The notes under the pieces are model-generated. The model was not told the origin of the DNA and did not search any database. It worked only from the letters and a program-made list of their open reading frames with translations. Both the position numbers and the translations under genes were made by a program. From Bdellovibrionales bacterium (lineage in GTDB: Bacteria; Bdellovibrionota; Bdellovibrionia; Bdellovibrionales; JAGQZY01), in contig JANPLN010000049.1 in NCBI GenBank assembly GCA_031426555.1, forward strand, positions 1,223 to 65,222: a DNA stretch of 64,000 nucleotides, read 5' to 3'. Shown here in pieces: positions 6,064-37,269 of the stretch (positions are counted from its first letter, which is position 1; each line of letters begins with the position of its first letter).

Positions 6064-6085
6064 AGAGGTGTGGTCTTGCACCTCT
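6064..6085. terminator. Hairpin between convergent genes (possible bidirectional terminator)
   Basis: AGAGGTG-N8-CACCTCT is flanked by TTTTTTG upstream and TTAATT downstream. It sits between the OMP gene (+) and the lipoprotein gene (-). Confidence 0.4.
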
Positions 6086-6615
6086 TAATTCGATCGCTTC
6101 AAAACTTCTTTTAAAACACGACTTTCACAAACCCATGGTGCTTGCCGCATGCAAGCGAGCGTTTGTGCTTTTTCGCTCTCCTGCAACGGTAATAATTTCC
6201 CTACAGCTTTGAGCTCCGTGGCTGAAAGAAAGAAATTAAACGACTGCAGGTACTCAGAAAATCCAACGTAAATGTCGCAACTGCAAGTGGCCGCGCAATC
6301 GGATTTCCAAAAAGCGACTTTCTCCTTGAGCGAACGCTTGAGATAATCTTCTTGAACTTCAGAATACTTTTCGTCCACAAGGGAGCGATAAGTTTGTAAA
6401 GCCCCCGCCATCTTATTTTGCGGGACAGAGCAGTTGTTTTCCGTTTTGTCGAAAGCTTTGTTCAAATATTGACCCACTTGACCCAGATCTTCCAAGCTCA
6501 TCTCTAAATGGCTTTGCGACAATCGCGGATCTTGTTTTTGCCCTTGTGGTGGCTCGGGCAAAGTCATGCAGCTTGCAACCGATAGAAGCAAAAGATAACC
6601 CATATAATTTTTCAT
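6085..6615 (-). CDS. Hypothetical Cys-containing lipoprotein
   Basis: Start taken at the internal Met (MKNYMGYLLLLSVASC, lipobox-like) at 6615, which gives an ATGA overlap with the upstream acyltransferase stop. I recognised no family. Confidence 0.4.
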   Translation of the reverse strand: MKNYMGYLLLLSVASCMTLPEPPQGQKQDPRLSQSHLEMSLEDLGQVGQYLNKAFDKTENNCSVPQNKMAGALQTYRSLVDEKYSEVQEDYLKRSLKEKVAFWKSDCAATCSCDIYVGFSEYLQSFNFFLSATELKAVGKLLPLQESEKAQTLACMRQAPWVCESRVLKEVLKRSN

Positions 6616-7400
6616 GGTTTCTCCTGGATGCTGGTTAAAAATTCCTTGGGACGGTTTGAAAAGTAACAATGGCTAATTTGCTGATAAGCCCGGTCGCTCA
6701 ATTGCCCGCGGTCGGGAAATTGCTGGGCAGGAATGGGCTCTAAATATTCAACAGTCACCTTGGCGGATTTGAGAGACGCCATTTTAAAAAAATGCGATAC
6801 AAAGGGCGTTTTTCCAAACCAACACAAAATACGATGATTCTTTCGGCTAAAGGGTTCGCCATTGAGTTCCTCGTAACGGAGACAAACCGGCAACACCTCG
6901 GCGCCAGCGGAAATGGCTGCCGTGAACATGGCTTTTTTGAAAGGCAACAGCGAAAGGCCATCGTGACTGGTGGCCTCGGGAAATACAAACACGTTGAAGC
7001 CGTCTTGCAACAGTTGCGCTAACTCTTTAATCTCTTTTGGAATGCGGCTGCGGTCGCGCCGTTCAACAAAGTAGCTTCCACCAAACGACGAGCACTCGCC
7101 TAAGAACGGAGTCTGTTTCATTTCTACCGAGGTTACGAAAACCGCTGGCTCTCCGGCGCTTAAAAAAAGAATATCCATGTACGACATGTGGTTACAAACC
7201 ATAAAATACGTTTTACCGCCGGCAAACAGATCGGGCCGCGACAAACGATATTCAACCTGAAAGCCAAACCCCTTCAACAGGCTTTTGCATTTGGCGGAAA
7301 CTTTTTGAATGGCTATTTTTCGCCATGCCAGACGATCGCGATAAAAATAATACCGAAGGCCCCCAAAGACGAGGTATTCGCTCACTAAAACTATGGCCAT
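6612..7400 (-). CDS. 1-acyl-sn-glycerol-3-phosphate acyltransferase family (PlsC-like)
   Basis: Has the NHMSYMDI (HX4D acyltransferase motif) and FPEATSHDG (FPEGTR-like block). The start was trimmed to MAIVLV (7400) to avoid overlap with the upstream gene that ends at 7411. Confidence 0.75.
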   Translation of the reverse strand: MAIVLVSEYLVFGGLRYYFYRDRLAWRKIAIQKVSAKCKSLLKGFGFQVEYRLSRPDLFAGGKTYFMVCNHMSYMDILFLSAGEPAVFVTSVEMKQTPFLGECSSFGGSYFVERRDRSRIPKEIKELAQLLQDGFNVFVFPEATSHDGLSLLPFKKAMFTAAISAGAEVLPVCLRYEELNGEPFSRKNHRILCWFGKTPFVSHFFKMASLKSAKVTVEYLEPIPAQQFPDRGQLSDRAYQQISHCYFSNRPKEFLTSIQEKP

Positions 7401-7410
7401 GATTGTATTT

Positions 7411-7887
7411 TTAAGGGAACGAAGCACGCCGAGTGGTCCGTTCGTTTTGTGCATCCCAGTCGGAAAGCGTGATAGAGGAGGCGGAGACAAGTCGTGATTC
7501 ATCGGCGTAGGCATCGCCCGGGTTTTTAGTGAGTGACCGATCGAGATCAATGGTGCCGCAAATATTGTAGGTGCTCGACGGGATTTGACTGGCAGGGCTT
7601 GAGTTATTATCTCTCCATGTGGTCACGGTGCCTGAGCAGCCAAAACCAAAGGTGCAAGTGATGTTGGCCGTACCCGCCACGACCGGAGCCAGGGGAATCT
7701 GATCATCGGCACAACCTGAGCTGGTGATGTTCATTGTCACCTCGTAGCTTCCTGTCGCGACGGCTGTACACTTCGCGTTTTGACAATCGATGATCACGTC
7801 TGGAATCGCCACAGGGTCTCCGCTTCCGGCAGATTCGCAGCGATTTAAGAGAACACCTAACAAAATTAAGAATAATGCTTTTTTCAT
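7411..7887 (-). CDS. Hypothetical Cys-rich secreted protein or lipoprotein
   Basis: Signal peptide MKKALFLILLGVLLNRC and eight Cys in 158 aa. No recognisable family. Confidence 0.4.
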   Translation of the reverse strand: MKKALFLILLGVLLNRCESAGSGDPVAIPDVIIDCQNAKCTAVATGSYEVTMNITSSGCADDQIPLAPVVAGTANITCTFGFGCSGTVTTWRDNNSSPASQIPSSTYNICGTIDLDRSLTKNPGDAYADESRLVSASSITLSDWDAQNERTTRRASFP

Positions 7888-7892
7888 GGTCC

Positions 7893-10424
7893 CTATTTTA
7901 AAGCTTTGTAAGTCCCTGTAAAGGGTTTTGCACGTTTGAGATCCACAAAGTAGGTGCTGATTTCGATGGGGTTCTCTTTGAGGGGTGCGCAGTACCCAAC
8001 CAGCTGAACCGTATCTCCCTTAGAGGTTGTTATATTTTTAGTCCAATACTGGGGGATTTCGTCTTTTTTAGCTTCTTCTTTGAGTTTTTGTCGTTTCAGC
8101 GTATCGCGCAAAAAATTGAGTATAAAAAGGGATTGCGAATTCGCAGGCTCTAGCAACACCCCGCACATTTGCGAAGTCCCGTTGATCCATTCCGCACCGA
8201 AGCCCACCCAGTCGGCTTTCAGATCCTTACCTTGATAAAGACCCGTAAGCAATCGTAGTGACTTCATCGTGTTTGGCAAAAGCAACTCAAGATCAAAGGC
8301 TTTCAGTTTCAGCGAATACTTTGTGTTGGTTTTAGTGAGTTCGATTCCTCTGAGGCTCGTTAACTTTTGATTTTCTGGCTGCTGCAAAAAGGTAACGAGC
8401 TCTTGCGGTTCCCAAAAATAAGGGTTCTCTAAAAAGTGGCCCAAAATATGTTCGCGAAAATTGGCCTCCACAAACTGCCTGCGATCTTTATTTTCCACTG
8501 GGAAAATACGAGCGGCGCAGTGCGAGCCTTCAGGCACAGGTAAGCAATAAATGTAAAAATGAATCTGATCGAAGATCTTAAAATTCCAGCGGTGCCATCG
8601 TCGTCCAAGGCCGTCTTCGACCTCGCTTTTTTCCATGGGCTTGTCGAAATTCTTCAGCGTAAAGGTTTTATAGGATTGAGGCCGAATGAAGGCTGAATAG
8701 GTGCCCGACAAAGCACCTTCCTCACCAAAAAAGTTTTTTAAAAATTTGCCCGTGATATCGGGATCAGTCACTTTCGTATTCAACAAAAGTTGGTTGTATA
8801 AACTCCCGTGGGCAAGATCATCCACCGACAGTTTGTTCTTCGCCGTGTTTTTTAAAACGTATTGAATATCTTTGGACGTGGGCTCTGAGAGAGGCACAAA
8901 TTCAATGTTCATCCCATAGGCCTGGAAATCAAATTTCTTTTCTTTTTCAAACTGCTCAACATAGGCGCGAAAGTCTTTGCGGTTTGGACTATCTAAAAAG
9001 CCCGCCACTTTCATGTACAGTCGGCCGTCGTGCTTATAAAAACTATTCTGACTGCTATCGAACTGCGAAGGAAAAATTGCCGGCGTTTTTTCACTCAAAA
9101 AAGAGCGCCAATCGAGGACGACCTGCTTCTTAGCTAACAACGCCTCTTCCACACTCTTGAGTGCCAATGACGACTTTTGTTGAACCTCGGTGAGAATCTT
9201 TTCGCCGATCAACTCAAAAGGGATGGGAGACTCAAATTTGAGCTCAATTTGATCAATCAGCTCGTTCACTTCGGGATATTCGCTGTACTCCGCCAAAAAC
9301 GGTAAAATCTGTTTTTGTAAAAACGAATTCAAATTGAAATTGAATAATTTTTTTACTTTTATTTTTATTTCCTTAGGCTCCGTGTTTTCGACGAATTTTT
9401 TAAAACCTACTTTTAAGTCGTGGCAGGAAGTGCCCAAATTGTAATTTTCGGCACCTGTCGCTGCAAACACCAGCGCGACAATACGACCTTGGGAATCCAG
9501 CAGTGGACCACCGCTATTACCGGGGCTTGCTCCCGCCGAGTAGCGGATGTATTTGATGGTTGGATCGTTGAGGTCTTGGGTTTCGTTGGCCATGATGCCT
9601 TCGCGAATGGCGATTCCCTGGCCGTGGGCATTGCCCAACGTATAGACTGTTTGGCCAATTTTAAAATCGTCGGCAAACTCCAAATATCCGTAAGACTCGG
9701 CGCCCTCGATCTTTAAAAACAGAAAATCCCTCACTGGATCAAAACCCAAAATCTGCTGGGGTTGAAATTTTTTGCCGTCGGCGGTGCGAATTTCGAAGGC
9801 TGTTTGCAAATCTAAAAAATCGCTGCCCCACAAACAATGACTGGCGGTTAAAACCACATTGGGCGCCACAAAAAATCCGGTGCAGTAGCCCATATTTTCA
9901 CGAAAATCAGTGTCGCTAAAACCGCCGTACTCTTTATAATCCTCGACGGCTGCTAAATCTTTTATCTTTTCAAACTCCACCACTTTCGACCGAACATCGG
10001 CGAGCAGCCGGTTTGGATCCGCATGTTTGGATTGGTTTTTTAAAAACATGTACGCAAAAATCGAGATCACAAAAACGGCGGCGACAACCACGAAGCCCAA
10101 CATGATTTTGTGCGATCGCTGTTGGCGCAGGCCGCGCACATCCACATCTCCGGTTTTTTCGGACATGGAGTAAGTCTCTGTGGCCAAATCAATTTGCGAA
10201 GACAGCGCGATGGAACCCTCGTCGTCGATGGTCTGAATTTTTTGTGTGGTGTAGTCTTGATACACCCATTTATTTTGTATCGAGGAGATTTTTCCATGCT
10301 TGCGGTGCAAGGAGGGATGGTTCACTTGGATTTGATTTTCCGGATCGCGACCTATTTCGTAGTCGCCGGACTCCAGTTTCACTGTTTGCAATACCAACCC
10401 ATTAAAGCGAATCACTAATTTCAT
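7893..10424 (-). CDS. FHA domain - TM helix - trypsin-like (S1) serine protease - large uncharacterised C-terminal domain
   Basis: N-terminal FHA pattern (YEIGRDPENQIQVNHPSLHRKHGKI...). Hydrophobic helix IMLGFVVVAAVFVISIFAYMF. S1 triad contexts VLTASHC, RDFLFLKI and GNSGGPLLD. About 480 further residues have no motif I recognise. Confidence 0.75.
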   Translation of the reverse strand: MKLVIRFNGLVLQTVKLESGDYEIGRDPENQIQVNHPSLHRKHGKISSIQNKWVYQDYTTQKIQTIDDEGSIALSSQIDLATETYSMSEKTGDVDVRGLRQQRSHKIMLGFVVVAAVFVISIFAYMFLKNQSKHADPNRLLADVRSKVVEFEKIKDLAAVEDYKEYGGFSDTDFRENMGYCTGFFVAPNVVLTASHCLWGSDFLDLQTAFEIRTADGKKFQPQQILGFDPVRDFLFLKIEGAESYGYLEFADDFKIGQTVYTLGNAHGQGIAIREGIMANETQDLNDPTIKYIRYSAGASPGNSGGPLLDSQGRIVALVFAATGAENYNLGTSCHDLKVGFKKFVENTEPKEIKIKVKKLFNFNLNSFLQKQILPFLAEYSEYPEVNELIDQIELKFESPIPFELIGEKILTEVQQKSSLALKSVEEALLAKKQVVLDWRSFLSEKTPAIFPSQFDSSQNSFYKHDGRLYMKVAGFLDSPNRKDFRAYVEQFEKEKKFDFQAYGMNIEFVPLSEPTSKDIQYVLKNTAKNKLSVDDLAHGSLYNQLLLNTKVTDPDITGKFLKNFFGEEGALSGTYSAFIRPQSYKTFTLKNFDKPMEKSEVEDGLGRRWHRWNFKIFDQIHFYIYCLPVPEGSHCAARIFPVENKDRRQFVEANFREHILGHFLENPYFWEPQELVTFLQQPENQKLTSLRGIELTKTNTKYSLKLKAFDLELLLPNTMKSLRLLTGLYQGKDLKADWVGFGAEWINGTSQMCGVLLEPANSQSLFILNFLRDTLKRQKLKEEAKKDEIPQYWTKNITTSKGDTVQLVGYCAPLKENPIEISTYFVDLKRAKPFTGTYKALK

Positions 10425-10456
10425 AAAACCTCAAGGTACCTTGGGTGTGGCATCTC

Positions 10457-11605
10457 TTAACGGGGACGCGCGCCCAAACTGTGAATCAAATCTGCGGTTT
10501 TTATTTTTCCTAACTCTGTTCGAGGAATCAAGGTCTTTGCGAAAACTCGCTGTATTTTCTGAAACGGAAGAAGTTTTTTTTGAAATTCATCAATCTGCTC
10601 AATTAGCACACAGTCTTCGGTCGCTAACACGAGTTCGCTGCCATCGCGCTCGTTGGGCAAAGAGACAATCACACTGTTCGCAGACAGTTGCTTTTCCTGA
10701 CAAAAACGTTGCCAGAGCTCATTCAGCTCTAGCAGGGAAACCGATTCGCCCTTCACTTTCACAAGCTCTGAGTCGCGACCTAAAAGAAAGAGTTCGTCGT
10801 TTTCAATTTTTCCGCGATCATCGCTTTCAAACCACCCTTGCTGTTTAGGATCCACCCACTGACAAAGTTCCCCGGCGTGTATTGAGTCGGGCATTGGGTC
10901 GGTCAATCGGCGGATGAGCAAATAGCCGGTTAGTAAGCTTGCGCCATAAAATTTAATTTTCTGATCATTGCCACTCTCCCACTTTTCCAAGTGCGGAAGT
11001 CGACGCCAAACCGCGGAAGAGGCCTCTTTGTAGGCGATCATGGCCGAAGTCTCCGTCATTCCATAGGTGCGAATCAGCGGCCACCCGAGCGCTTGCGCCT
11101 GCTGAAAAAGAAAGTCCGTGAGCGCGCCACCGCCTGCAAAAACGCAGCGAAGAGTTGGCGGCGCTTTTTTTTGCGCTTGGACTAAATCGTAAATTTGTGT
11201 GGGAACCAGGGAGGTCACAGTGCTTCTAGTGGATTTCAAACTTTCACAAAACTCATTTACGTCCCACGTGAGTTCGGGGGCTTGCACAAGTTGAGCACCG
11301 CTCACCCTGGCGCGCGTGGATTGCAACAAGCCCGCCACGTGAAAGTTGGGAAGCGTATTAAAAATGACATCTTTGCCCGTGATAGCAAAAAACTGATTCA
11401 CTCCACTGGCAGCGGCTTCCAAAGCTTTTTTGGAGAGGGCCACCATCTTGTAGCGCCCGCCTCTTTGCGACTCGGTGCCCGAGCTCATCACCCAAACATG
11501 GTCTCCACGGTGCCAGTCAAGATGACAGGCGCGCACGAGCCTTTCAATGTGCACTCGCTCCGCTTGTGGCAGTCGTGGATTAAGTAAAATTAAATCGCTG
11601 TCCAC
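10457..11605 (-). CDS. menE: O-succinylbenzoate-CoA ligase (short form)
   Basis: AMP-binding family motifs SSGTES...K, YGMTET and GRDSELVKVKGESV. It occupies the last position of the men operon and overlaps the menC stop by 16 nt. Confidence 0.75.
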   Translation of the reverse strand: MDSDLILLNPRLPQAERVHIERLVRACHLDWHRGDHVWVMSSGTESQRGGRYKMVALSKKALEAAASGVNQFFAITGKDVIFNTLPNFHVAGLLQSTRARVSGAQLVQAPELTWDVNEFCESLKSTRSTVTSLVPTQIYDLVQAQKKAPPTLRCVFAGGGALTDFLFQQAQALGWPLIRTYGMTETSAMIAYKEASSAVWRRLPHLEKWESGNDQKIKFYGASLLTGYLLIRRLTDPMPDSIHAGELCQWVDPKQQGWFESDDRGKIENDELFLLGRDSELVKVKGESVSLLELNELWQRFCQEKQLSANSVIVSLPNERDGSELVLATEDCVLIEQIDEFQKKLLPFQKIQRVFAKTLIPRTELGKIKTADLIHSLGARPR

Positions 11606-12513
11606 GGTTCTCTCTCTAGTAAATCATCAAAACCAATTCCTGTTCCCGGAATGGCATGAAAATAGGCTGTGTTCGTAGACATTTGCGAAAAATACGAATT
11701 TGCTTCAAACAGATGGGCGGACTGCAGGCCGTAATCTCGTGTTTGTCGACCTAAACGTTGCACACTGAACTGCGCTTGCAGCGCAGCAAACGCCTGCCCC
11801 ACGGGGTGATCAAGGGAGTTGGTGATCACATCCTGGGACCGGGCAAATTGGTTCTCGCGCGCGGGTTTAATAATTTTGGCAAAGTGACCTTTCGCCTTTC
11901 GCGCAGAGTTTGTATCGGCACCCATAGCCTGATCCAGCGCTATTTTAATTCCGTACTTGCTCTCAAGCGTCGCCCACTGAGTTTCGTTAAACATGCCAGG
12001 ATCTTCGATCAAATCGATTTGCGATAAAAACAAACTGCTCATTTCTTTTAAAAACGGTTCGGCGTCGACGCCATTAAAATCCAAACGCAAGCGAAACCAA
12101 TTTTTTTCGGCCAAATGCAAACAGAGAGGAATTTCTTTAGCAAAATCTCGTCCCACTTTGAGTTTTAATGTGCGAAAGCCTTGTTCGCGAATCTTTTGTA
12201 ATACGTCGTCCGAGGAAAGGTGTGTCACATCAAGCAAAGTAAAATGACTTCGCAACCGCACGTGCTTGGGCCAGAGACTGCGCTTTTCTTCGCGCGCCAC
12301 CCCGTCGAGGTGAGCAAAAAAAACGCTGCGCTTTAGGAGCGGGTTGAGCTTTCGATTTTGTAGCCGTTGAATATGTTGTTCCACACTGGCGTCGTTAAAC
12401 ACCGGCCAGGGGCGACAGTCCGCATAGCCCGCAGCAAAATCCTGGCTTTGAAGTTTAATTAAAAAACCATCAAGCTTTTTGTCGACCCCATAGGGCGCGA
12501 TCCACAGCCTCAT
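11590..12513 (-). CDS. menC: o-Succinylbenzoate synthase (enolase superfamily)
   Basis: The FRTLKLKVG block and DxN/D metal-ligand spacing are typical of OSBS. Operon context sits between menA and menE, with an ATGA-type overlap to menA. Confidence 0.75.
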   Translation of the reverse strand: MRLWIAPYGVDKKLDGFLIKLQSQDFAAGYADCRPWPVFNDASVEQHIQRLQNRKLNPLLKRSVFFAHLDGVAREEKRSLWPKHVRLRSHFTLLDVTHLSSDDVLQKIREQGFRTLKLKVGRDFAKEIPLCLHLAEKNWFRLRLDFNGVDAEPFLKEMSSLFLSQIDLIEDPGMFNETQWATLESKYGIKIALDQAMGADTNSARKAKGHFAKIIKPARENQFARSQDVITNSLDHPVGQAFAALQAQFSVQRLGRQTRDYGLQSAHLFEANSYFSQMSTNTAYFHAIPGTGIGFDDLLEREPWTAI

Positions 12514-13379
12514 AAAAAACTCGCAAACACAAAACTGATTCCAAAGAGCACGTGCAATCCAGCCGCTTTGCCGAGAGCCCCGACCAGCTCCGCGCGGTCT
12601 TGAAAGCGCAACACGCTTTTTATCAGCTTCACCGCCAGTGGAAGAGTTGCCAAATAGAGTAAAAATAAAAAATCACCGTACATTACCGACCACACAACAA
12701 CAAAAACGTAGGAGCTGAGTAAAAATAAACAGATTTCTGCCTGCACAAAACCATCGCCAAACAACACTGCGAGAGTTCGTTTGCCGACCTTCGCATCCTC
12801 GGGTCGGTCGCGCAAATTATTCAGCGCAATCAGCACGCTCGATAACAGACCCACTTGTAGGCCCAGCCAAAGGCTAGCGCCATTCCAACTTCCCGTAAGA
12901 ATAAAAAAACTTGTGGCCACCGCGATGACACCAAAATACAAAATCACGAACAAATCACCCAATCCCAGATAAGCTAAAGGGAAAGGTCCTCCGGTATAGC
13001 CATAAGCTAAAAGCAACGAACTAATTCCGATGGCCAGAAGCGGCCAGCCGCCTTTGAGCACCAAGGGAATTCCACAAGCCAAAGCCAAAACACAAAATCC
13101 AATGGCCACGGCGTACACGGTGCGCTCACCGATCAGTCCCGATTGAGTCACGCGCACCGGGCCCACGCGAATTTTGTCGGCGCCTTTATGAAAATCAATA
13201 GCATCATTAAAAAGATTGGTCGCAATTTGAATGCTCATCGCAGAGATTAACAAGCACGCGACGAGTGAATAGGTAATCTCATTATTTAAATACCGAGCCA
13301 GCGCCACAGCCACCAGCACCGGCACCAAAGCCGCTGTTAAAGTTTTTAAACGAAACGCCAGCAGCCATGATTTGATCAT
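12510..13379 (-). CDS. menA: 1,4-dihydroxy-2-naphthoate polyprenyltransferase
   Basis: Polytopic membrane protein with the UbiA-family NDAIDFHKGAD motif and a second Asp-rich region NNLRDRPED. Confidence 0.85.
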   Translation of the reverse strand: MIKSWLLAFRLKTLTAALVPVLVAVALARYLNNEITYSLVACLLISAMSIQIATNLFNDAIDFHKGADKIRVGPVRVTQSGLIGERTVYAVAIGFCVLALACGIPLVLKGGWPLLAIGISSLLLAYGYTGGPFPLAYLGLGDLFVILYFGVIAVATSFFILTGSWNGASLWLGLQVGLLSSVLIALNNLRDRPEDAKVGKRTLAVLFGDGFVQAEICLFLLSSYVFVVVWSVMYGDFLFLLYLATLPLAVKLIKSVLRFQDRAELVGALGKAAGLHVLFGISFVFASFL

Positions 13380-13387
13380 CGAGAATC

Positions 13388-14227
13388 CTATGGATAACGA
13401 GGGAATTTGCTAAAGTCGGGCTTGCGCTTTTCGATAAACGCTTGTTTTCCTTCTTTGCCCTCTTCAGAGAGATAATAAAGCAGCGTGGCGTTTCCAGCCA
13501 AATCCAAAAGTCCAATTTGCCCGTCGCAGTCAGCGTTGAGCGACGCTTTTAAAAAGCGCAATGCCATGGGCGAAAGTTCCATCATTTCACGACACCACTG
13601 CATGGTTTCGGTTTCCAGTTCAGCCAGCGGCACAACTTTGTTAACCAAGCCCATCTCAAGAGCCTGTTCGGCGTCGTACTGGCGACACAGAAACCAAATC
13701 TCGCGGGCCTTTTTTTGACCCACAATGCGCGAGAGATAACTGCTTCCTAAACCACCGTCGAAGGAACCGACCCGCGGCCCGGTTTGTCCAAAACGCGCGT
13801 TGTCGGCAGCAATGGAAAGATCGCAAACGACATGCAACACATGGCCGCCGCCAATGGCCCAGCCAGCAACCATGGCCACAACCGGTTTTGGCAAACTGCG
13901 AATCTGTTTTTGTAAATCGAGAACATTGAGGCGCGGAACTCCGTCGCCACCCACATAGCCACCGTCGCCGCGAACTTTTTGATCGCCACCCGAGCAGAAG
14001 GCTTTTCCACCCACGCCCGTCAAAATCACAACACCGATTTTTTCATCGTCGCGAGCGAGATCGAAGGCCTCTTTCAATTCAACAACGGTGCTGGGACGAA
14101 ACGCGTTGTGAACCTCGGGTCGGTTGATGCTGATTTTTGCAATTCCATCTTCCGTGCGTTCGAATAAAATATCTTGGTATTTTTTGATCGAAATCCACGT
14201 CTCGGCAACGGGTGTTTTTTCAGCCAT
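13388..14227 (-). CDS. menB: 1,4-dihydroxy-2-naphthoyl-CoA synthase
   Basis: Crotonase fold with the MenB-specific [15 protein letters not shown] and [26 protein letters not shown] blocks. Confidence 0.92.
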
Positions 14228-14263
14228 CGGTTCCTCCCAGGAGTGTGAGTGCTGAACGTGGTT

Positions 14264-14965
14264 TTAGCTCTGTGCGAGCGGATTGGACAGTGATGCGCCT
14301 TGCATCATCGCCGTGATCTCAGCAGAGTGAGAGAGATGCAGGCTGTGACCTCCATCCAGAGGCATAAATTTCCAGGGCAACCCGCGATTTCGTAATGATT
14401 TGGCATAATTTGCAAATTTACTGTCCTTCTCGCCGTAAACGTAGGTCACCGGGAACGGTGCTTTTTTTAGAAGCTCCATTTGCTCGTCTTGCAACCCAAG
14501 AGACCAGTTGGTCATAGCCGCAGCCAAAATTTCGCGATTGAAGGTTTTTTCGAAACGCAGGGGGCGCACGCTGTCGGACTGAAACACCGTTTGCGCATTC
14601 CACTCCCGCATCAAGGGCGCCCAGTCGTCTTTTAAAAACTGCTCGGACCATTTATGATCTGCTTTGAGACGTAATTTTTTTTCGGCGCTGGAATCCAAAC
14701 CACCGTGCACCGATACCAATATCAGTTGTTTGATTCGCGACCATTGCTCTTGCGGCCAATGAAGGGCAATACGCCCCCCAAGAGAGTATCCCACGATGGT
14801 CAGCTGCTCTCTAGAAATCGTTTTTGCCAATTGCTCCCCCGCTTGGGTGAGGGTGGTGTATTTTTGCGGAGAAACATCAGTCCACAAATCGACTTTTTCG
14901 TCGGCGGTGAAGGCTTGCCAGTCGGAAGGAAGTCCTAAAAAACCGTGCACAAGAATTGATTTCAT
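14264..14965 (-). CDS. menH: SHCHC synthase (alpha/beta hydrolase)
   Basis: GYSLGGRIA nucleophile elbow and an HGFLG oxyanion region. It lies between menD and menB. The start at ATG 14965 overlaps the menD stop by 1 nt (TAATG). Confidence 0.7.
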   Translation of the reverse strand: MKSILVHGFLGLPSDWQAFTADEKVDLWTDVSPQKYTTLTQAGEQLAKTISREQLTIVGYSLGGRIALHWPQEQWSRIKQLILVSVHGGLDSSAEKKLRLKADHKWSEQFLKDDWAPLMREWNAQTVFQSDSVRPLRFEKTFNREILAAAMTNWSLGLQDEQMELLKKAPFPVTYVYGEKDSKFANYAKSLRNRGLPWKFMPLDGGHSLHLSHSAEITAMMQGASLSNPLAQS

Positions 14966-16512
14966 TATTTCATCTCCCACAAGCGATCATCGTCGAGCCA
15001 AAAATTTTGCGTCTGTTCGTCGGAAGGCTGAAGCTCAATGCAATCACCGCTTGGTAGGCTCCACATTCTTGCCCAATCGGAAAAATGGATTTTATGTTCG
15101 TTATAAAATATTTTTTTATTAAACAGACGTTCGAAAATTTTACCACCGCTGTTATTGAGCACAACAAGTTTTAAGGGATGGGGTTGTTTTTGCCAAAACC
15201 ACAGGGCATTGGCGTCGTAGAGAGTGGTGAGATCTCCCAAAAGCACCCAAAGATTTTTTTTCGGCTGCAAAAATCCCAACGCGGTGGAGAGCTGACCATC
15301 GATGCCATTGGCTCCCCGATTGGCTTGAACAAAAATTTCTTTATCGCGCACTGCAAACCCGTCCCACTCGCGAATCGGAAGGCTGTTGCCCACATACACC
15401 GTTCCGCAGTTGGCATCGGCTGTGATTTGCTTCGACAAGGCATGCACCAAAGCGGGTTCACTTTGCGGATAGCGCGCCAATAGCGCCTGCCGCTTTTGCA
15501 AATAGAAATTATCTTTTTCTTGAGCCGACACGAAAAACTTTTCATCAAAAAAAGGAGTTGCGAGCTTCGGCAAAGTCTCCTCGAGATTCACGCAAAAAAA
15601 CTCTCCTCGCGCCAAACCCGAAAAAGGGCGTCGCGAAAGGGAAAACACCGGCAAGTCTGATTTTTCCAAGTTACGCCAGGCGCGCGCCGTCGGCACGCCA
15701 CCAAGGCGTATCACACTGTCTACGGCTCCTGAGGAAAGCATTTGTTGCAAACGTTTGTCGCCCGACAAAATCATTCCGGGGTGTTGGAGTTCACGAAGTC
15801 CACTGGTTCCCTCGGCGTAGATCCATCCCGGCCAGCGCTTTAGCCACTGGCGAACCGCTGGAATTTCTTTGGCGGTCAGTGTACTTACGAAAACGACTGC
15901 ACGCGGACATTTTTTACAGAAACTTTCCCAGGCCGCTTCTGCGGCGTTCGAAGACGGCGAAGGTTTTTTAAAAGATATTTTTGCGCTGTTGTCTGCGCTG
16001 AATTTTAAGAGCGCGGTCTCGTCGGAAACAAGAGGTTCATCAAAACAAATGTTCAACTGCAACGAACTCCGCATCTGCCACGCGGGCTCAACAAATTCAC
16101 CCTCCATGTCCACACAGTTTTCCACATAGGTGGTAAAAATTCCCACTTGCTCCACGGTTTGCGGCGCCCCGGTCCCGCGCATGCGGCGAGGACGATCCGC
16201 CGAAATCACAATGAGTGGCGTGCTCGTGTAGTGCGCCTCCATCACTGCCGGCAAAAGTTCGGCGACCGCTGTGCCCGATGTAACGATGACGGCCACCGGA
16301 GCCTGTGTGTTTTGCGAACGGCCAAGGGCGTAAAAACCCGTAGCTCGCTCGTCAAAACCAGAATGAATAGCAAAGGGAGAATCATTTTCTAGAGCGACGA
16401 CAAAGGGCGAATTTCTTCCGCCCGGGCACAAACAAATTTCGCGCACACCAACACTCCACAACCATTGCAGGGTTTGTTGCACGACGCTCGCGTTGTTTGC
16501 GGAGTTTTTCAT
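14965..16512 (-). CDS. menD: SEPHCHC synthase (ThDP-dependent)
   Basis: ThDP-binding GDLTTLYDANAL...NN motif and an N-terminal PYR domain (CPGGRNSP). The start was trimmed to MKNSANN (16512), giving an ATGA overlap with the menF stop. Confidence 0.88.
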   Translation of the reverse strand: MKNSANNASVVQQTLQWLWSVGVREICLCPGGRNSPFVVALENDSPFAIHSGFDERATGFYALGRSQNTQAPVAVIVTSGTAVAELLPAVMEAHYTSTPLIVISADRPRRMRGTGAPQTVEQVGIFTTYVENCVDMEGEFVEPAWQMRSSLQLNICFDEPLVSDETALLKFSADNSAKISFKKPSPSSNAAEAAWESFCKKCPRAVVFVSTLTAKEIPAVRQWLKRWPGWIYAEGTSGLRELQHPGMILSGDKRLQQMLSSGAVDSVIRLGGVPTARAWRNLEKSDLPVFSLSRRPFSGLARGEFFCVNLEETLPKLATPFFDEKFFVSAQEKDNFYLQKRQALLARYPQSEPALVHALSKQITADANCGTVYVGNSLPIREWDGFAVRDKEIFVQANRGANGIDGQLSTALGFLQPKKNLWVLLGDLTTLYDANALWFWQKQPHPLKLVVLNNSGGKIFERLFNKKIFYNEHKIHFSDWARMWSLPSGDCIELQPSDEQTQNFWLDDDRLWEMK

Positions 16513-17579
16513 AATTGAAACGTCTTTCGCACCGAATCTCTTTTTGCGCGCAGCTCTTGCCACTCTTCGGCAAACTGGCTTTCTTCAACAATCCCACAGC
16601 CATTACCAATAAAGTAATGACGGGCATCCCACTGAATTTTGCGAATAGCCACAAGGCATAAATACTCGGTGGCACTCCAGCGAATGCCAAACGGCGCTCC
16701 CAAAATATCACTCTGGTGACGCCATTTTTTAAGAAGCTCCATCTGCTCCCGTGGAACAATTCCCAACGCCGGGGTGGGATGTAGCGCTGCGATCATTTGT
16801 TCAAAAGAAAGATCGGTGGCGCTTGTGACTTGCAAGGGCGTGTAAAGATGTGTGAGAAAATTGAGCTCTAAAAATGCGGTTTTTCCAACTTTGGTTTTGC
16901 CAAAGTCTTTCAATCTGTTGACGATGTCGTCGACAACGTACTGATGCTCTTTCAACTCTTTGGGGTCGCGTAAAAAGTCTTCGGGATCCTGCTGGTAGTG
17001 TTCTTTTTTCCGGGTCCCAGCCAGGGCCATGGTTTTGATCACATTTTTGTTTTCGCGCAAAAATAAAACTTCGGGACTAAAACCAAAAAACCCGTGTTCT
17101 TTATGCCAGTGGCCGTAAACATAGGTGTTCACTGGCGACATTTTCAAGGCCCGTAAAATAGCGATGGCCGGAGGGATGGTTTTTGCCGCCTGCGCTGTAA
17201 CGATAGGTACTGCTTTTTGAATTTTTTTACTTTTGATTTCTTTTTTGATGTCTTGAAAAACTTTTTTAAAAGCGGCCTCGGAAGGCTCTTCCCAGTAGGT
17301 CTCGGCAGTGGCGGTCTCCGCCGTTTTGTCGATCACTTGGCGCTTCAGTTCGTCCACCACCAGGGTTTTCCAGTCTTTCCACACAAACCTTTCCGAGTTG
17401 GGGTACTGCAACCAGGGTTCCGAACCGTCGCGAAAGAATGTCGTATGAAAAAAGGCTGGGCCGGTGGTCAGGGCTTCACGCTTTGCGGACGTGGGCTTGC
17501 CCCAGTGGACTTCGACCCACTTGCCTACTTTGCCGATGATTGAGCCCTGTTCTAGCCAGGAATTGAATGAAAAGCCCAT
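16509..17579 (-). CDS. menF: Isochorismate synthase (short form)
   Basis: Chorismate-binding family signature ALHPTPALGIVP and GAPFG...GNGCGIV. It is the first gene of the men operon. Confidence 0.8.
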   Translation of the reverse strand: MGFSFNSWLEQGSIIGKVGKWVEVHWGKPTSAKREALTTGPAFFHTTFFRDGSEPWLQYPNSERFVWKDWKTLVVDELKRQVIDKTAETATAETYWEEPSEAAFKKVFQDIKKEIKSKKIQKAVPIVTAQAAKTIPPAIAILRALKMSPVNTYVYGHWHKEHGFFGFSPEVLFLRENKNVIKTMALAGTRKKEHYQQDPEDFLRDPKELKEHQYVVDDIVNRLKDFGKTKVGKTAFLELNFLTHLYTPLQVTSATDLSFEQMIAALHPTPALGIVPREQMELLKKWRHQSDILGAPFGIRWSATEYLCLVAIRKIQWDARHYFIGNGCGIVEESQFAEEWQELRAKRDSVRKTFQL

Positions 17580-32279: not shown

Positions 32280-32617
32280 CGTTAGTACTTAGAGCCAATC
32301 AACAAATCATCTGTTCTCAAGTCCGCGTGGCTAACAGTTTTGCAACCCGTGTGGTGGGCTTGATTGGCACGAAACAATTGAATCAGGAGGGGTTATTCAT
32401 CCCCGGCTGCAATTGGATTCATACGTTTTTTATGTCCATCCCCATCGATGTGGTTTACGTGGATCGCCAGGGTGGAATTCGTAAAATTGATCATCGCATA
32501 AAGCCATGGCGTCTTGGAAAGCCCGTGTGGTCTGCAACCGATGTTGTGGAATTGCCTGCTGGGTTTGCAGAACTTAAGTCGTTAAAAATAGGAGACACAC
32601 TACATGTGGGCCATTAA
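32276..32617 (+). CDS. DUF192 family protein
   Basis: ANSFATRVVGLIG...GLFIPGCNWIHTFFMSIPIDVVYVD matches the DUF192 (COG1430) core as I remember it. ATGA overlap with the upstream gene. Confidence 0.65.
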   Translation: MTLVLRANQQIICSQVRVANSFATRVVGLIGTKQLNQEGLFIPGCNWIHTFFMSIPIDVVYVDRQGGIRKIDHRIKPWRLGKPVWSATDVVELPAGFAELKSLKIGDTLHVGH

Positions 32618-34274
32618 AATCCTCAATGGAGCACAGTCTGGAAAGATATTTCCTCTCATAAAGGGAAATAATATTCTCGGTCGCTCTGTCAAAGCGAACA
32701 TTCGCCTGGCCGACAATGGTGTTTCTAAAAACCATGCGCAGATCTTTGTGACGAACGATAAAGTCATTATCTCTGATTTAAAATCGAGCAATGGAACCTT
32801 CGTCAATGGTATCCAAGTGCAGAATCACGGATTAAAAACTGGTGATAAAGTTTTAATCCACCAAACTATTTTTACCATCTTTCAACTTCCCGACAACGTG
32901 GTGTTTGCAGATCAAAAGTTAAACAAAGCCATGCCCTCGCGGGGTCTTGCCAACTCACCAGCGAACACACCAGCAAACTTCCCGGCCCATGGAAGCAACG
33001 CCCTCCAATTGCAACACGATCCCCATTCGCTGATGATGCATGATTCGGCTTCAGCACAACAGCCCTCCATGGCCCCGGTGTTTGAACAACCTAAACTTTT
33101 AGAGATCCTTCGCGAACGCACCGAGCAGTATGTGGACGAAGTGGCCATGCCGCCGATCTACAAAGCCGCCGAAAAATTCGACTTCAAACATATTCTCGCT
33201 GGCTTCACCATCGCCTTTATTTTTCTCACCACATTCCTCGCCATCTTTCCGCTAGCCAAACTGACCCGCGAAACCGTTCTCACAGAAAGTAAACGCCGCG
33301 CTCTCACAATGGCCCGCAACCTGGCGCAAATGAATCGCAAGGCTCTGGCCGATGACTCCGAGCTTTCGTTAACAACCGATTTTGTAGCTCGCGAGTCTGG
33401 CGTCGACAAGGTGATGATCATCTCTGGACAAAGCGGCGCGATCCTTGCCCCCGCCAATCAGATGGGTCAATTCCTCAAGGACCCGTTCGTGATTAGTTTG
33501 CGCAACAGTCACAGCGAACAAGTGGATTTGATCAACGATTCCCAGGTGGCAGCCAGTGTGCCCATGAAGTTTTTCAATGCAGAGATTGGCGATTCCACCG
33601 TGAAAGCTTACGCCATCGTTATCTATAACGTTGACCCCCTGGCCGTGGATTTTGGCAGAACCCTTAGTTTATTTATTCAAATCTTTTTGATTGCCTGTGT
33701 GATCGGCGCGGTTATTTTTGTGATTCAGTATCGGCTCATCATTTATCCGCTTAAAAATTTGAATCGTGAAATCGATCGTTCGTTGAGCGAGGGCAGTAGC
33801 AATATTCAAATCAATTTCCAACTGCCGATTTTCCAAAAATTAATTGCCAACATTAACAGTGCTCTCTCACGAATCAATGCAGATTTTTCCGGTACCGACA
33901 AAATGGCGGCTCAGTCTGACAAGTCCGTAGAAGCCTACGAAGTTGTGAAGATGTTCCCAGTGCCCGCGTTCGCTCTCGATCCGCAAACACAACAGTTCAT
34001 TGCTTTAAATCCCGCCCTCGAAGGCCACCCACTTTTTGATGGAGGCCGGGTTTTACAAATGTCCATCACCGAGCTCACAGATAAATCACTTTACGAGTCG
34101 CTGAAGGATTTAGTGGCTACTTGCGTGCAAAATCCGAACAGTGCCCACACGAACGAACTTCCCTCGCAGGGTTCCGAAAAATACGAGATCGCTGCCAAGG
34201 CTATTATTAACAATAATAAACCCAACTACATTTTATTTACAGTGATGCAAATTGTTGAGGAGGAATCGAGCTGA
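32604..34274 (+). CDS. FHA domain - 2TM periplasmic sensor-like - HAMP-like - PAS-like protein (no output domain)
   Basis: FHA signature ILGRS...VSKNHAQIF...DLKSSNGTFVNG. Two hydrophobic helices (ILAGFTIAFIFLTTFLAIFPLA; LSLFIQIFLIACVIGAVIFVIQY) bracket ~140 aa. IIYPLKNLNREIDRS follows TM2. 14-nt overlap with DUF192. Confidence 0.75.
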   Translation: MWAIKILNGAQSGKIFPLIKGNNILGRSVKANIRLADNGVSKNHAQIFVTNDKVIISDLKSSNGTFVNGIQVQNHGLKTGDKVLIHQTIFTIFQLPDNVVFADQKLNKAMPSRGLANSPANTPANFPAHGSNALQLQHDPHSLMMHDSASAQQPSMAPVFEQPKLLEILRERTEQYVDEVAMPPIYKAAEKFDFKHILAGFTIAFIFLTTFLAIFPLAKLTRETVLTESKRRALTMARNLAQMNRKALADDSELSLTTDFVARESGVDKVMIISGQSGAILAPANQMGQFLKDPFVISLRNSHSEQVDLINDSQVAASVPMKFFNAEIGDSTVKAYAIVIYNVDPLAVDFGRTLSLFIQIFLIACVIGAVIFVIQYRLIIYPLKNLNREIDRSLSEGSSNIQINFQLPIFQKLIANINSALSRINADFSGTDKMAAQSDKSVEAYEVVKMFPVPAFALDPQTQQFIALNPALEGHPLFDGGRVLQMSITELTDKSLYESLKDLVATCVQNPNSAHTNELPSQGSEKYEIAAKAIINNNKPNYILFTVMQIVEEESS

Positions 34275-35266
34275 TGAGTTCGCAGGCTCTGAGTTCCTCA
34301 CCATTTTCGGCATTCCAGGTGACCCTGCGTCTCCTGGCGGGCCCCAATAAGGGAGATGTGTATCGCATCCTTCCCCCGGGCGCCGTTATCGGTCGAGATG
34401 CTCTGTCCTGCCAAGTCGCCTTGATGGACGCGCGAGTGAGTCGTCAACAGTGTCGTCTGGACTATAAAATGGAAGGCCTCACGGTTGAAGATCTGAGCGG
34501 TAAACAAACGACCCTCGTCAATCAGCGCCCCATCGAGGGAGAGCACCTCCTGCAAAATGGGGATATTCTTACCTGCGGCGACACTCATATCTCCATCGAG
34601 ATTCAGTCGGACGGCCTCACCACAGTTCCGTCGCTGAGTGCGCCTGCGCACAGGCCTGCTTCTCTCTCTTCTACATCTTATATTCCAGAGCCTGCAATGC
34701 CGCAAAATCAACCCCCGTCCATGGATCCGCAATCGAAGCGGTTGTCGATCATCGTTGGGATTGGTTTGGTTGTGGGTCTTGGACTTTTTCTGATGCCAGA
34801 AGACGCGCCGAAACCTCCACCAAAAATAGCAACTTCGGAAACAATCAACGAAAGCATCGCGGCCGTGCAAAAGCGCCAAGAGGAAATCTCAAAAAATACA
34901 AGCCAGCTGACGGAGCTCGAGCTTTACAACAAACGTTCAGCGCAAAAACATTATATTCGCGGCTTGCGAGACTTTCAGAATGCTCGCTACAATCGCGCCA
35001 TCGAGGCATTTCAAACAGCGCTCGCCACCGACCGAAGTCATGTGATGGCTCGACGATACTATAAATTAGCCGAAAAAAAGCGACTCAACGAAGTCGATTA
35101 CCATATGGACCTTGGTTTAAAATACAAAGACAAGTCGATGTATAAAATGTGTATCGCTGAATTTGCTCATGTTCTACAGATTCTCAATCAGCCGACAAAT
35201 AAAAAGTATCAATTGGCTAAAGAACAAATCAAAGAATGCCGTCTGTCAATACAGGAGGGTGTATAG
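34274..35266 (+). CDS. FHA domain - TM - TPR-like protein
   Basis: FHA pattern VIGRDALSCQVALMDARVSRQQCRL...TTLVNQ. TM is LSIIVGIGLVVGLGLFLM. The C-terminal region has helical TPR-like repeats. TGATG overlap with the upstream stop. Confidence 0.7.
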   Translation: MSSQALSSSPFSAFQVTLRLLAGPNKGDVYRILPPGAVIGRDALSCQVALMDARVSRQQCRLDYKMEGLTVEDLSGKQTTLVNQRPIEGEHLLQNGDILTCGDTHISIEIQSDGLTTVPSLSAPAHRPASLSSTSYIPEPAMPQNQPPSMDPQSKRLSIIVGIGLVVGLGLFLMPEDAPKPPPKIATSETINESIAAVQKRQEEISKNTSQLTELELYNKRSAQKHYIRGLRDFQNARYNRAIEAFQTALATDRSHVMARRYYKLAEKKRLNEVDYHMDLGLKYKDKSMYKMCIAEFAHVLQILNQPTNKKYQLAKEQIKECRLSIQEGV

Positions 35267-37269
35267 TGGCCCGACTTAAGGTGAGACGACATCAAGTGAA
35301 TTTTGCTGAGCTCGAATTGGAGCCTGGCAAAACCTATATTATAGGTCGTCGTGAAAACGCCGACGTAATTCTCTCATCTGATCCGGGGATCTCTCGCCAG
35401 CACGTTTCCATTGAGTTTACCGATAGCGCTTGGGTTGTAAAATCTCTTTCAACCCACCTACCTGTTTCCTACGAGGGTAAAACCCATAACACATTATCGT
35501 TTGTTGATGGAATTGCGCATTTCTACGTCACTCCCTATGAATTTGAATTACAAATGCTCAACGAAGAACCTTCGCTTAAAACAGACGAGGCCAAACCTCC
35601 GGTGGGGCTGGACCCCAGCGCTCCCGCCAACGGTGAAGTGGATGAGAAAATTCGCGAGCCTCTGCAAAACGGTCAGTCCGAGGTTCCTGCCTACGATGCA
35701 GAATTGTCGTTTCATGGTAACGAAGAGCCGACGGGCGAAGTGCATTTGGCCCACGAACCGTATATTAAATTTATGCACGAGAGCCATTCCGAATCCCTAC
35801 GACTTAAGGGTAACAAGTGGGTGGCTGGTCGCGACAATATCGCACAGATTCAGTTGGACGATAAAAAAGCCAGTCGTCAGCATTTCAGCTTAGAAAAAGT
35901 CGGCGAGCAGTTTTACATTAGAGATCTACAAAGTGCCAATGGCACCTTGCTAAATGGTCAGGAGCTCCCGCACCATGAGCCGCGCGAAATAAAAAGCGGC
36001 GATATTATCACCGTCAATCAACTCACGATGATTTTTGAAATGCGCGATCTTTCGTTTTCGGAAAAACTCAAAGATCTTCCTCTTCAAGCCTATAGCGGTC
36101 CGTTGATCTTAAGTTCGCAGGAGTGGGATTTGGCTGCTGATTCTCACAAGCCGTCACTGCGACTCGAAACCAAAGACCTGGCGCAGGTTACGGGGTCTGT
36201 ACAAAAAGTAACCCCTCCGGTTGCGAAAAAGAATCATCTTCGAACCGCTCTGCTTGGAGCAGTTGCTTTAATCATTATTGGCTATGCGCTTTACCAGCAA
36301 AACAGCCCCGCCCCCCAACGAGATCTGGCCGCAGCAGGTGTAAAAACGTTTGAATCCTTATCTCCAGAGGAAAAAAAGTTTGTGGCCGATAGCTACAACT
36401 CGGCTCAAAACTATTACCAAGAAGGTCGCATTCAGAATGCGCTCACGCAACTCGCATACGTGCATAAAACTTTGCCCTTCTACAAGGACTCTCGCGAGCT
36501 AGAAACAAAACTTGTGGAAGCCCAAGAAACTCTTCGCCAAAAAGAATTTATTGCTCAGCAACGACGTGAGCAGGAAGAAACCCGCATTAAAGTGCAAAAC
36601 ATCGTTGCCGACTGCCGCGATCGCTATCGCGATTCGGTCGACGTCTCCGCAGTGAAAGGGTGTCTCACCGGCGCCCTGCAACTGGATCCCGAAAACTCGG
36701 ATGCTCTCTCCATTGTCGCCGAGATTGAACTGCGCTTGAATCAAGCCCTCGAAGCCGAACGAAAACTCAAAGAATTTAACGACAATGCGCAAAAAGGCCG
36801 CGATCTGTTTTATCGGGCTAAAAATCTTTTGCAAAACAAAGACTACCATGAAGCTATCACAGCATTTTCAGCCCACATCAACGCCAATCTGCCCGATCCC
36901 GACAAGTTAAAGCCAGCATCGCAGAGACAAGTGGCTTCCATCGAAAATCACATCGAAACACAAAAAAGATCCTTGATGGGTAAAGCCAACACGCTACTTA
37001 ACAGTGGCAACCTGCGCGATGCGGTCGTGGCCGCCGAACAGGCCAAGCGTGTGGATCCCTATGATTATTCCATCGCTAACTTTATCGAACAAACCCGCCG
37101 TTCGCTGGAAGTGAAGATGCGCCCTCTGTATGAAGAGAGTGTGATCGAAGAGCGCTTTGGTAATTTCGAAATTTGCAAAGCCAAATGGCAAGAGATCGTG
37201 GCCAAGGACATCCCAACAGGCGAATATTATCTTAAAGCGAAGCGCAAACTTCAGCAGTACGGACCGTAA
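35266..37269 (+). CDS. Tandem FHA-FHA - TM - TPR-rich protein
   Basis: Start reassigned to GTG 35266 (AGGAGGG lies 7 nt upstream; TAGTG overlap). FHA1 is IIGRRENADVILSSDPGISRQHVSI. FHA2 is VAGRDNIAQIQLDDKKASRQHFSL...SANGTLLNG. TM is LRTALLGAVALIIIGYALY. About 330 aa of TPR-like helices follow. Confidence 0.75.
   Translation: MARLKVRRHQVNFAELELEPGKTYIIGRRENADVILSSDPGISRQHVSIEFTDSAWVVKSLSTHLPVSYEGKTHNTLSFVDGIAHFYVTPYEFELQMLNEEPSLKTDEAKPPVGLDPSAPANGEVDEKIREPLQNGQSEVPAYDAELSFHGNEEPTGEVHLAHEPYIKFMHESHSESLRLKGNKWVAGRDNIAQIQLDDKKASRQHFSLEKVGEQFYIRDLQSANGTLLNGQELPHHEPREIKSGDIITVNQLTMIFEMRDLSFSEKLKDLPLQAYSGPLILSSQEWDLAADSHKPSLRLETKDLAQVTGSVQKVTPPVAKKNHLRTALLGAVALIIIGYALYQQNSPAPQRDLAAAGVKTFESLSPEEKKFVADSYNSAQNYYQEGRIQNALTQLAYVHKTLPFYKDSRELETKLVEAQETLRQKEFIAQQRREQEETRIKVQNIVADCRDRYRDSVDVSAVKGCLTGALQLDPENSDALSIVAEIELRLNQALEAERKLKEFNDNAQKGRDLFYRAKNLLQNKDYHEAITAFSAHINANLPDPDKLKPASQRQVASIENHIETQKRSLMGKANTLLNSGNLRDAVVAAEQAKRVDPYDYSIANFIEQTRRSLEVKMRPLYEESVIEERFGNFEICKAKWQEIVAKDIPTGEYYLKAKRKLQQYGP

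Follow-up and report, generated by a model that had tools for sequence, protein, structure and literature searches.

A predicted inner-membrane protease with a cytoplasmic FHA-like domain and a C-terminal module of no recognised fold, conserved in Bdellovibrio-type bacteria

Two groups of chymotrypsin-fold proteases come closest to the protein described here. DegS, a member of the HtrA family (S1C: DegS, DegP, DegQ, MucD, AlgW), is anchored by one N-terminal transmembrane helix and has its protease in the periplasm, and MarP (Rv3671c) of Mycobacterium tuberculosis has four transmembrane helices, no FHA domain and no C-terminal module. A third design, known from FHA-(FHA)-transmembrane-trypsin-like proteins of other phyla and compared by us by domain content, follows the same logic as the present protein: a cytoplasmic FHA domain, a single transmembrane helix and a periplasmic S1 protease. 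A protein of Bacteroides thetaiotaomicron, NP_811686.1, was catalogued in 2008 with an FHA-FHA-Tryp architecture (PMC2605481); apart from this catalogue, the literature on FHA-trypsin proteins yielded one unrelated conflict-systems paper and no characterised example. Here we describe a gene of this design in a 64,000-nt stretch of contig JANPLN010000049.1 (the window) from a Bdellovibrionales bacterium, the source of the locus being a freshwater-sediment metagenome. Its product, P0001, shares the N-terminal order of cytoplasmic FHA domain, transmembrane helix and periplasmic part with bitopic proteins such as YscD/PrgH of type III secretion systems (T3SS), mycobacterial FhaB/FipA and the FHA proteins encoded at 32604-37269 of the window; unlike P0001, these carry a periplasmic part that is not a protease. 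The FHA-transmembrane-protease design is recurrent, and the P0001 family is a variant of it with an altered FHA pocket, an orphan module, a linked lipoprotein and no writer or eraser genes nearby. We infer the function of P0001 from sequence, models and gene order, and the account that we favour, with moderate confidence, is that of a single-pass inner-membrane protease with an FHA docking domain inside and with the module and a lipoprotein in the envelope.

The open reading frame (ORF) of 843 amino acids (aa) that a preliminary description of the window had placed on the minus strand holds to the exact coordinate (Table 1). A search of 5.8 billion proteins returned about 77 full-length relatives of P0001 (820-930 aa, 26-70% identity), and the gene is therefore real. 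Existing names of these relatives, from metagenome-assembled genomes (MAGs) of Bdellovibrionaceae, Bdellovibrionales and Pseudobdellovibrionaceae, go at most as far as 'trypsin-like peptidase domain-containing protein'. A scan of species-representative genome contigs with the motif SPGNSGGPL, a generic pattern that matches many other proteins, gave at least six further full-length relatives; its members are labelled Bdellovibrionales, Pseudobdellovibrionaceae, uncultured Bdellovibrio and Halobacteriovoraceae, and also include two 'Deltaproteobacteria/Desulfobacteraceae' MAGs. Conservation counts given below come from a 58-sequence homolog alignment and Pfam domain counts from 49 homologs. Invariant in the alignment are, among others, G25, R26, H196, C197, D233 and the whole S300-PGNSGGPL-308 segment. 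The AlphaFold model of full P0001 has a mean predicted local distance difference test (pLDDT) score of 91.8 and a predicted template modelling (pTM) score of 0.81. P0001 thus stands for a family of membrane proteins that is conserved among predatory bacteria of the Bdellovibrio type and has so far gone unstudied.

Table 1. Features of the P0001 locus in window coordinates.
Feature	Positions	Strand	Basis
Whole gene P0001, 843-aa bitopic FHA-transmembrane-S1 protease-C-module protein	7893..10424	-	ORF
FHA-like beta-sandwich, residues 1-88, predicted cytoplasmic	10161..10424	-	Pfam, family profile, model
Single transmembrane helix, residues ~107-128, N-in/C-out signal anchor	10041..10106	-	Hydropathy, charge bias, model
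Chymotrypsin-fold S1 protease domain, residues 137-346, predicted periplasmic	9387..10016	-	Trypsin_2, triad, Foldseek
Catalytic triad H196; D233; S304	9837-9839; 9726-9728; 9513-9515	-	Alignment
Alpha/beta module without known fold, residues 347-843, predicted periplasmic	7896..9386	-	Sequence and fold searches, model
menE-protease spacer, 32 nt, weak hairpin and GAGG ribosome-binding site	10425..10456	-	Sequence, fold, terminator scan
Cys-rich lipoprotein, 158 aa, lipobox Cys17 and six invariant Cys	7411..7887	-	Homolog alignment
PlsC-like acyltransferase, 262 aa from ATG 7400	6612..7400	-	PF01553, E 9.5e-22

Pfam Trypsin_2 (PF13365) matches residues 181-318 over its full profile (positions 1-144; E 1.5e-23, 84.6 bits against a cutoff of 27.6), and all 49 homologs match it too. 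The three triad contexts read in the preliminary description as ASHC, DFLFLKI and GNSGGP lie at A194-S-H196-C197, D233-FLFLKI and G302-N-S304-GGP; in an alignment they coincide with the catalytic residues of MucD and HtrA. The triad is not misaligned, and profile matches were found for both the S1 and the FHA domain. By profile score, His-Asp-Ser order and oxyanion-hole motif P0001 is an S1 (PA-clan) peptidase. As H196, D233, S304 and the G302-N-S304-G-G-P307 motif are invariant in the 58 sequences, the protease is predicted to be catalytically intact, and the enzyme active, throughout the family. Cys181 and Cys197 form the pair of the His loop (C181 in 57 and C197 in all 58 sequences), with a spacing of 16 residues like that of the chymotrypsin Cys42-Cys58 His-loop disulfide.

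When the full model was compared by Foldseek, only the protease domain found matches: the top hits, at E ~1e-12, were MarP/Rv3671c, MucD, DegS, DegP and DegQ, and Deg1 and HtrA1/2 were also among the matches. The top structural match is MarP (3k6y; E 1.1e-12, TM-score to target 0.68), which, like P0001, is a membrane-tethered extracytoplasmic protease of chymotrypsin fold, has no PDZ domain and contains a pair of Cys within its protease domain; P0001 differs from it in its single transmembrane helix and in a score of 41.7 bits with the MarP model NF033740, against a cutoff of 250. To the HtrA family P0001 is similar in the GNSGGP motif, in the protease core (sequence and structure) and in lacking a zymogen-type Asp before the catalytic Ser. 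Yet no PDZ domain was detected in the 49 members by Pfam or in fold searches with the full model or the module, and where HtrA proteases carry PDZ, P0001 carries an unrelated module of about 500 aa; HtrA proteins, unlike P0001, also have no cytoplasmic domain. In NCBIfam only HtrA/DegP/DegS/MarP models matched, on the protease core and far below their cutoffs (TIGR02037, 52.1 vs. 416.2; DegS, 32.2 vs. 423; DegP, 29.5 vs. 720). P0001 is thus a membrane-anchored protease in the manner of HtrA and MarP and a member of neither family.

The membrane topology was assessed from several sides. A hydrophobic stretch at residues 107-125 (Kyte-Doolittle 2.71) is the one helix of this kind in P0001, in agreement with the approximate residues 108-128 proposed earlier; AlphaFold places a helix at 97-131, and at a hydropathy threshold of 1.3 the helix is present in 57 of the 58 homologs. 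In the 15 residues flanking it, the mean number of Lys plus Arg is 4.45 on the N-side vs. 2.00 on the C-side, the N-side being the richer in 51 of 58 sequences. Three Cys pairs (C181/C197, C627/C636 and C754/C812), each conserved in at least 55 sequences, all lie C-terminal to the helix, and Cys is usually absent from the first 100 residues. Finally, the homolog P0180 consists of a signal peptide, Trypsin_2 and the module without the FHA and transmembrane part, and a whole family of about 660-aa proteases, described below, is likewise built with a signal peptide. Because of the charge bias, the Cys pairs, the P0180-type variants and this family, we consider the N-in/C-out topology a strong inference, with the FHA domain predicted in the cytoplasm and the protease and C-terminal module predicted in the periplasm. 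The two domains would then stand on opposite sides of the membrane, as the preliminary description had suggested.

For the C-terminal part of some 480 residues, in which no motif had been recognised from the letters, domain and structure databases gave no match either. Residues ~330-843 had no match in Pfam (49 members), in NCBIfam or with a sequence profile against PDB. Modelled alone, the module reaches pLDDT 83 and pTM 0.85 and shows a mixed alpha/beta structure, including two units of a four-strand meander followed by a long helix; Foldseek found nothing below E 1e-3 in PDB or BFVD. Its faint best resemblances, to PsbP (probability 0.51) and LpqN (0.28), were not relied on, nor were those to RseB, lipocalin or TbpB (below 0.1). 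An internal duplication was also considered and rejected, since hhalign among five segments gave probabilities of 15% or less. A HMMER search with the module found only 83 proteins in 1.84 billion representatives, nearly all of them about 850 aa long with the module at ~350-880, or apparent fragments by length and truncated match. P400, W439, F588, D604, W610 and W739 are invariant in the module, and R608 and R724 nearly so.

Members of the about 660-aa family come from Rhodanobacter, Dyella, Rhodocyclaceae and others and combine a signal peptide, Trypsin_2 and a C-terminal region of about 430 aa. Compared with the P0001 module alone, this region aligns over 287 columns (hhalign 92.6%, E 4.5e-7). 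The two families have in common a homologous protease, a homologous C-terminal region and the motifs D-x3-R-x-W and LPVP(D/E)G; they differ in that the signal-peptide proteins are shorter and start with a cleavable signal peptide, without any FHA and transmembrane part, and the last ~100 residues of the Bdellovibrionota module lie outside the alignment. The module is always fused C-terminal to an S1 protease in the Bdellovibrionota family and in these cousins. Two signal-peptide proteins of about 310 aa (P0170 and P0174) match only an inner part of it, and as natural variants they too count towards the N-in/C-out topology. The comparison strongly supports a view of protease plus module as an older secreted unit, which in other bacteria would be made with a cleavable signal peptide. 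As the FHA and transmembrane part stands where the relatives have their signal peptide, the Bdellovibrionota enzyme would instead stay tethered to the inner membrane and have a cytoplasmic handle. The signal-peptide family (P0078-P0106 in alignment A6, for example at loci L020, L021, L025, L036 and L039; all loci compared here are numbered in this way) has the generic annotation 'trypsin-like peptidase domain-containing protein' only and seems unstudied.

The secreted relatives also bear on a possible role in predation, in which the transmembrane helix would be a mere export anchor, and the protease with its module would be shed by self-cleavage or by another protease to act on the prey envelope during invasion or bdelloplast digestion. 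In favour of this reading, P0001 relatives of the same build are confined to predatory lineages of the Bdellovibrionota type, those that have a cleavable signal peptide are genuinely secreted or periplasmic proteins, and Bdellovibrio genomes are rich in secreted hydrolases. On the other hand, an enzyme that is shed would have little use for a conserved cytoplasmic FHA domain with an invariant Gly-Arg pair, the sequence after the helix showed no conserved cleavage motif, and members of the homologous signal-peptide family belong to non-predatory Gamma- and Betaproteobacteria, so that the module is not specific to predation. We consider such an effector very improbable.

The FHA signature reported at the N-terminus is borderline in P0001 as a single protein and was confirmed at the level of the family. 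Pfam FHA (PF00498) matches P0001 at residues 22-58 with 22.4 bits against a cutoff of 20.7, and 44 of the 49 homologs match it individually. A profile of the N-terminal ~92 residues, run against all PDB sequences, found almost only FHA-domain structures (best E 3.6e-5), which we take to be those of Slr1951, Ki-67, Rv1747, EmbR, Rad53, MDC1, FhaA and OdhI. Against three strong FHA domains that the window encodes at 32604-37269, the same profile gave an hhalign probability of 81% (E 1.2e-5), and AlphaFold models the N-terminus as a beta-sandwich with pLDDT ~90. By profile and by fold this is an FHA domain. The Yop-YscD_cpl model (PF16697) matches 34 of the 49 members weakly; with a sub-threshold score (21.2 bits vs. 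a cutoff of 33.2) and no T3SS genes nearby, P0001 does not qualify as an FHA domain of the T3SS YscD/PrgH type.

The residues of the FHA pocket give a graded picture. In P0001 the canonical phospho-threonine (pThr) contact Ser of the SxxH motif is H40 and the canonical Asn is K62, as judged from profile alignments. G25-R26, the GR motif, is kept in 58 of 58 sequences, and the FHA residues L17, Y22, I32 and W53 are nearly invariant down to 25% identity. In the deep-branching clade (below 38% identity to P0001, n = 24), S-R at positions 40-41 is kept in 23 sequences, which retain SRxH. The middle clade (38-50%, n = 15) is variable at position 40 and has mostly lost R41 (Pro in seven), while the window's own clade (50% and above, n = 19) has His at position 40 in 16 members, Arg in three and Ser in none. 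The Asn of the beta6-beta7 loop is conserved in no clade and does not figure among the commonest residues of any clade. Because G25-R26 is universal and SRxH persists in the deep branch, the FHA domain is under selection. Still, of the Arg, Ser and Asn of a functional pThr reader, P0001 possesses only the Arg, and canonical pThr reading by its FHA domain is doubtful. Docking may be pThr-dependent in the deep-branching members, which keep GR...SRxH; in the window's clade, with Ser replaced by His and no Asn, it is probably non-canonical or phospho-independent.

Directly downstream of the protease gene, after 5 nt, starts the gene of the Cys-rich lipoprotein, which the preliminary description had correctly noted together with a PlsC-like gene. 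Lipoboxes of its homologs read LTGC, FVAC and LSAC, six Cys in addition to that of the lipobox align throughout, and the whole family comprises only 13 clusters. In all six loci with readable upstream sequence (the window, L002, L007, L003, L087 and L089) the lipoprotein lies downstream of the FHA-protease gene; in five it is the next gene, and in L003 one outer membrane protein (OMP) gene stands between. L003 is telling for this linkage, because its protease is only 35% identical to P0001 and the men and plsC genes are absent, while the lipoprotein is still linked. We regard the lipoprotein as a candidate clade-restricted partner of the protease. NlpI-Prc of Escherichia coli offers a functional analogy only: in P0001 loci, too, the genes of a small lipoprotein and a periplasmic protease stand in close linkage, without any relationship to NlpI-Prc in sequence or fold.

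Taken as a mechanism, the favoured account would work as follows. The periplasmic protease would cut specific envelope proteins, with the C-terminal module selecting the substrate or gating the enzyme as PDZ domains do in HtrA proteases. The co-encoded lipoprotein would be a partner in the role of adaptor, regulator, inhibitor or substrate, the analogy being with pairs such as NlpI-Prc, and the cytoplasmic FHA-like domain would dock the enzyme to a cytoplasmic or inner-membrane protein and so fix where or when the protease acts. A number of points weigh against this. The FHA match of P0001 is borderline and partial, covering profile positions 1-38 of 67, and only one of its three classical pThr-contact positions is canonical. 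Disulfides in the three Cys pairs are putative, being suggested by conservation only. Among the conserved residues of the module there is no recognisable catalytic or binding motif, and its role as a substrate-selecting or regulatory unit is conjectural. Flanks of L001, L004-L006 and L008-L012 do not contain the lipoprotein gene, so it is not an obligatory partner across the family. A search for RNA evidence of co-transcription found the locus in DNA metagenome runs only. Finally, no kinase or PP2C gene lies within ~8 kb of the protease gene, either in the window or at L001 and L002, which are syntenic with it, and a regex scan for the Hanks-kinase catalytic-loop motif, a crude test, found none in any frame of the window.

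In a stricter, pThr-gated version a Hanks kinase would phosphorylate a partner or the protein's own juxtamembrane linker, and the FHA domain would read the pThr and recruit, cluster or allosterically activate the protease from inside. In its favour, the FHA fold is real and its G25-R26 invariant, S-R-x-H is kept in 23 of 24 deep-branching members, and an FHA-rich operon lies in the same window: with the four strong FHA domains at 32604-37269 and that of P0001, the window does hold the five FHA domains, and by the scan above no kinase, that had been noted from its letters. At two distant loci, L004 (positions 1-496, HAMP-SpoIIE) and L006 (614-2563, CHASE2-SpoIIE), genes of PP2C-type phosphatases occur within 8 kb upstream of family members that belong to a distant clade keeping canonical SRxH; we take this as a weak hint of a phospho-link. 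Directly upstream at L006 there are also another trypsin-domain gene, of 386 aa, and one for a TPR protein. However, in the window's clade the pThr-contact Ser is His in 16 of 19 members and Ser in none, the canonical Asn is missing in 58 of 58, and the gene order offers neither writer nor eraser, the neighbours of the protease being men genes, the lipoprotein, plsC, an OMP and GT9. No Hanks kinase or PP2C gene is in the same operon at the P0001 locus. Nothing found here thus supports the earlier proposal of a protease positioned or gated by kinase signalling, and a strict pThr switch appears unlikely.

The degenerate pocket could also be read the other way, with P0001 as a constitutive envelope housekeeping or quality-control protease, similar to HtrA or MarP, whose FHA-like domain is a structural stub as in T3SS YscD/PrgH. 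The closest structures, MarP, MucD, DegS, DegP and DegQ, are indeed those of quality-control or stress proteases, the FHA domain of the window's clade is degenerate, the weak Yop-YscD_cpl matches extend over 34 of 49 members, and regulatory genes are absent nearby. Yet the invariant G25-R26 and the near-invariant L17, Y22, I32 and W53 argue for a binding function that has been kept and not for decay, and a large family-specific module together with a dedicated lipoprotein suggests a specific substrate range. We hold this alternative to be conceivable though doubtful, and keep to a regulated or localised protease with a docking FHA domain as the preferred account.

The remaining neighbourhood agrees with what had been described. 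The gene follows the men operon, with menE ending 32 nt upstream and only a weak hairpin between (Table 1). The GAGG ribosome-binding site stands 4 nt before the ATG of the protease gene, and the hairpin, which overlaps it, folds with -11.1 kcal/mol for a 56-nt stretch (z -1.7; 9 of 200 shuffles were as good). It was rejected as a terminator because of its weakness and this overlap, and because the terminator scan did not call it. The same weakness and overlap make read-through from the men operon into the protease gene likely, as far as can be predicted. The order men, protease, (small gene), plsC-like is kept in the window, L001 (42% identity), L002 (56%), L007, L087 and L089, and lost in L003-L006. 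Since it is gone in these distant loci and kept within one clade only, we interpret it as clade-level synteny and not as joint function, and a functional link of the protease to the men operon or plsC was rejected.

Several observations on the flanking genes are added for completeness. MenE (10457-11605, minus strand) is short at 382 aa, with Pfam AMP-binding covering only profile positions 175-339, and a short MenE (376-380 aa) recurs in L001, L002 and L087. With TTG 7550 as its start, the PlsC-like ORF as listed (6612-7550, minus strand) would share 140 nt with the lipoprotein gene; a start at ATG 7400 (MAIVLVSEYL...) fits the 257-264-aa orthologs and leaves a spacer of about 10 nt after the lipoprotein stop. 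Right after the plsC stop, the 194-aa ORF 6085-6669 (minus strand) has a probable start at the internal MKNYMGYLLLLSVASC, which would make it a second lipoprotein (lipobox LSVASC) with no Pfam match. In the clade of ~40-42% identity plsC is followed by a gene for an M13 (neprilysin-type) metallopeptidase (L001 11542-13548, L087 7402-9402, L089 3604-5595), which is not at the corresponding position in the window. In L003, an alpha-2-macroglobulin-like gene (MG2/A2M/bMG10, >1900 aa; 11902-17438) lies ~2.5 kb downstream of the FHA-protease and lipoprotein genes, and a Toluene_X/FadL-type OMP gene lies in between. As for published data from Bdellovibrio, Bd0474 is the only FHA protein mentioned in the main text of PMC6561027, and neither an HD100 ortholog nor a Tn-seq phenotype was located in its supplement, which has no men-gene annotation.

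A bolder combination of these elements would join protease, orphan-fold module and lipoprotein into a hitherto unrecognised device that spans the envelope of predatory bacteria. With the lipoprotein placed in the outer membrane, the module would recognise either it or lipidated or misplaced envelope proteins, and the FHA domain would tie proteolysis to a state of the cell interior by way of a non-canonical Arg/His/Lys pocket for phosphate or peptide, perhaps in connection with the FHA network, itself without a kinase, that the window encodes. We regard this as a long shot; if true, it would mean inside-out control of envelope proteolysis during prey attack.

The P0001 family is a well-defined generator of hypotheses rather than a surprise. 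It offers a natural series in which the FHA pocket passes from canonical SRxH to altered HRxH with Gly-Arg invariant throughout; a confidently modelled module of ~500 aa without structural relative, standing where HtrA has PDZ and common to a signal-peptide family of other Proteobacteria; and a small lipoprotein, predicted to be disulfide-rich, as a dedicated candidate partner. The envelope is a compartment without ATP, and an FHA domain joined through a transmembrane helix to a periplasmic protease could let the cytoplasm control protein cutting there. As the family is confined to predatory lineages, it is a reasonable candidate for envelope remodelling during predation.

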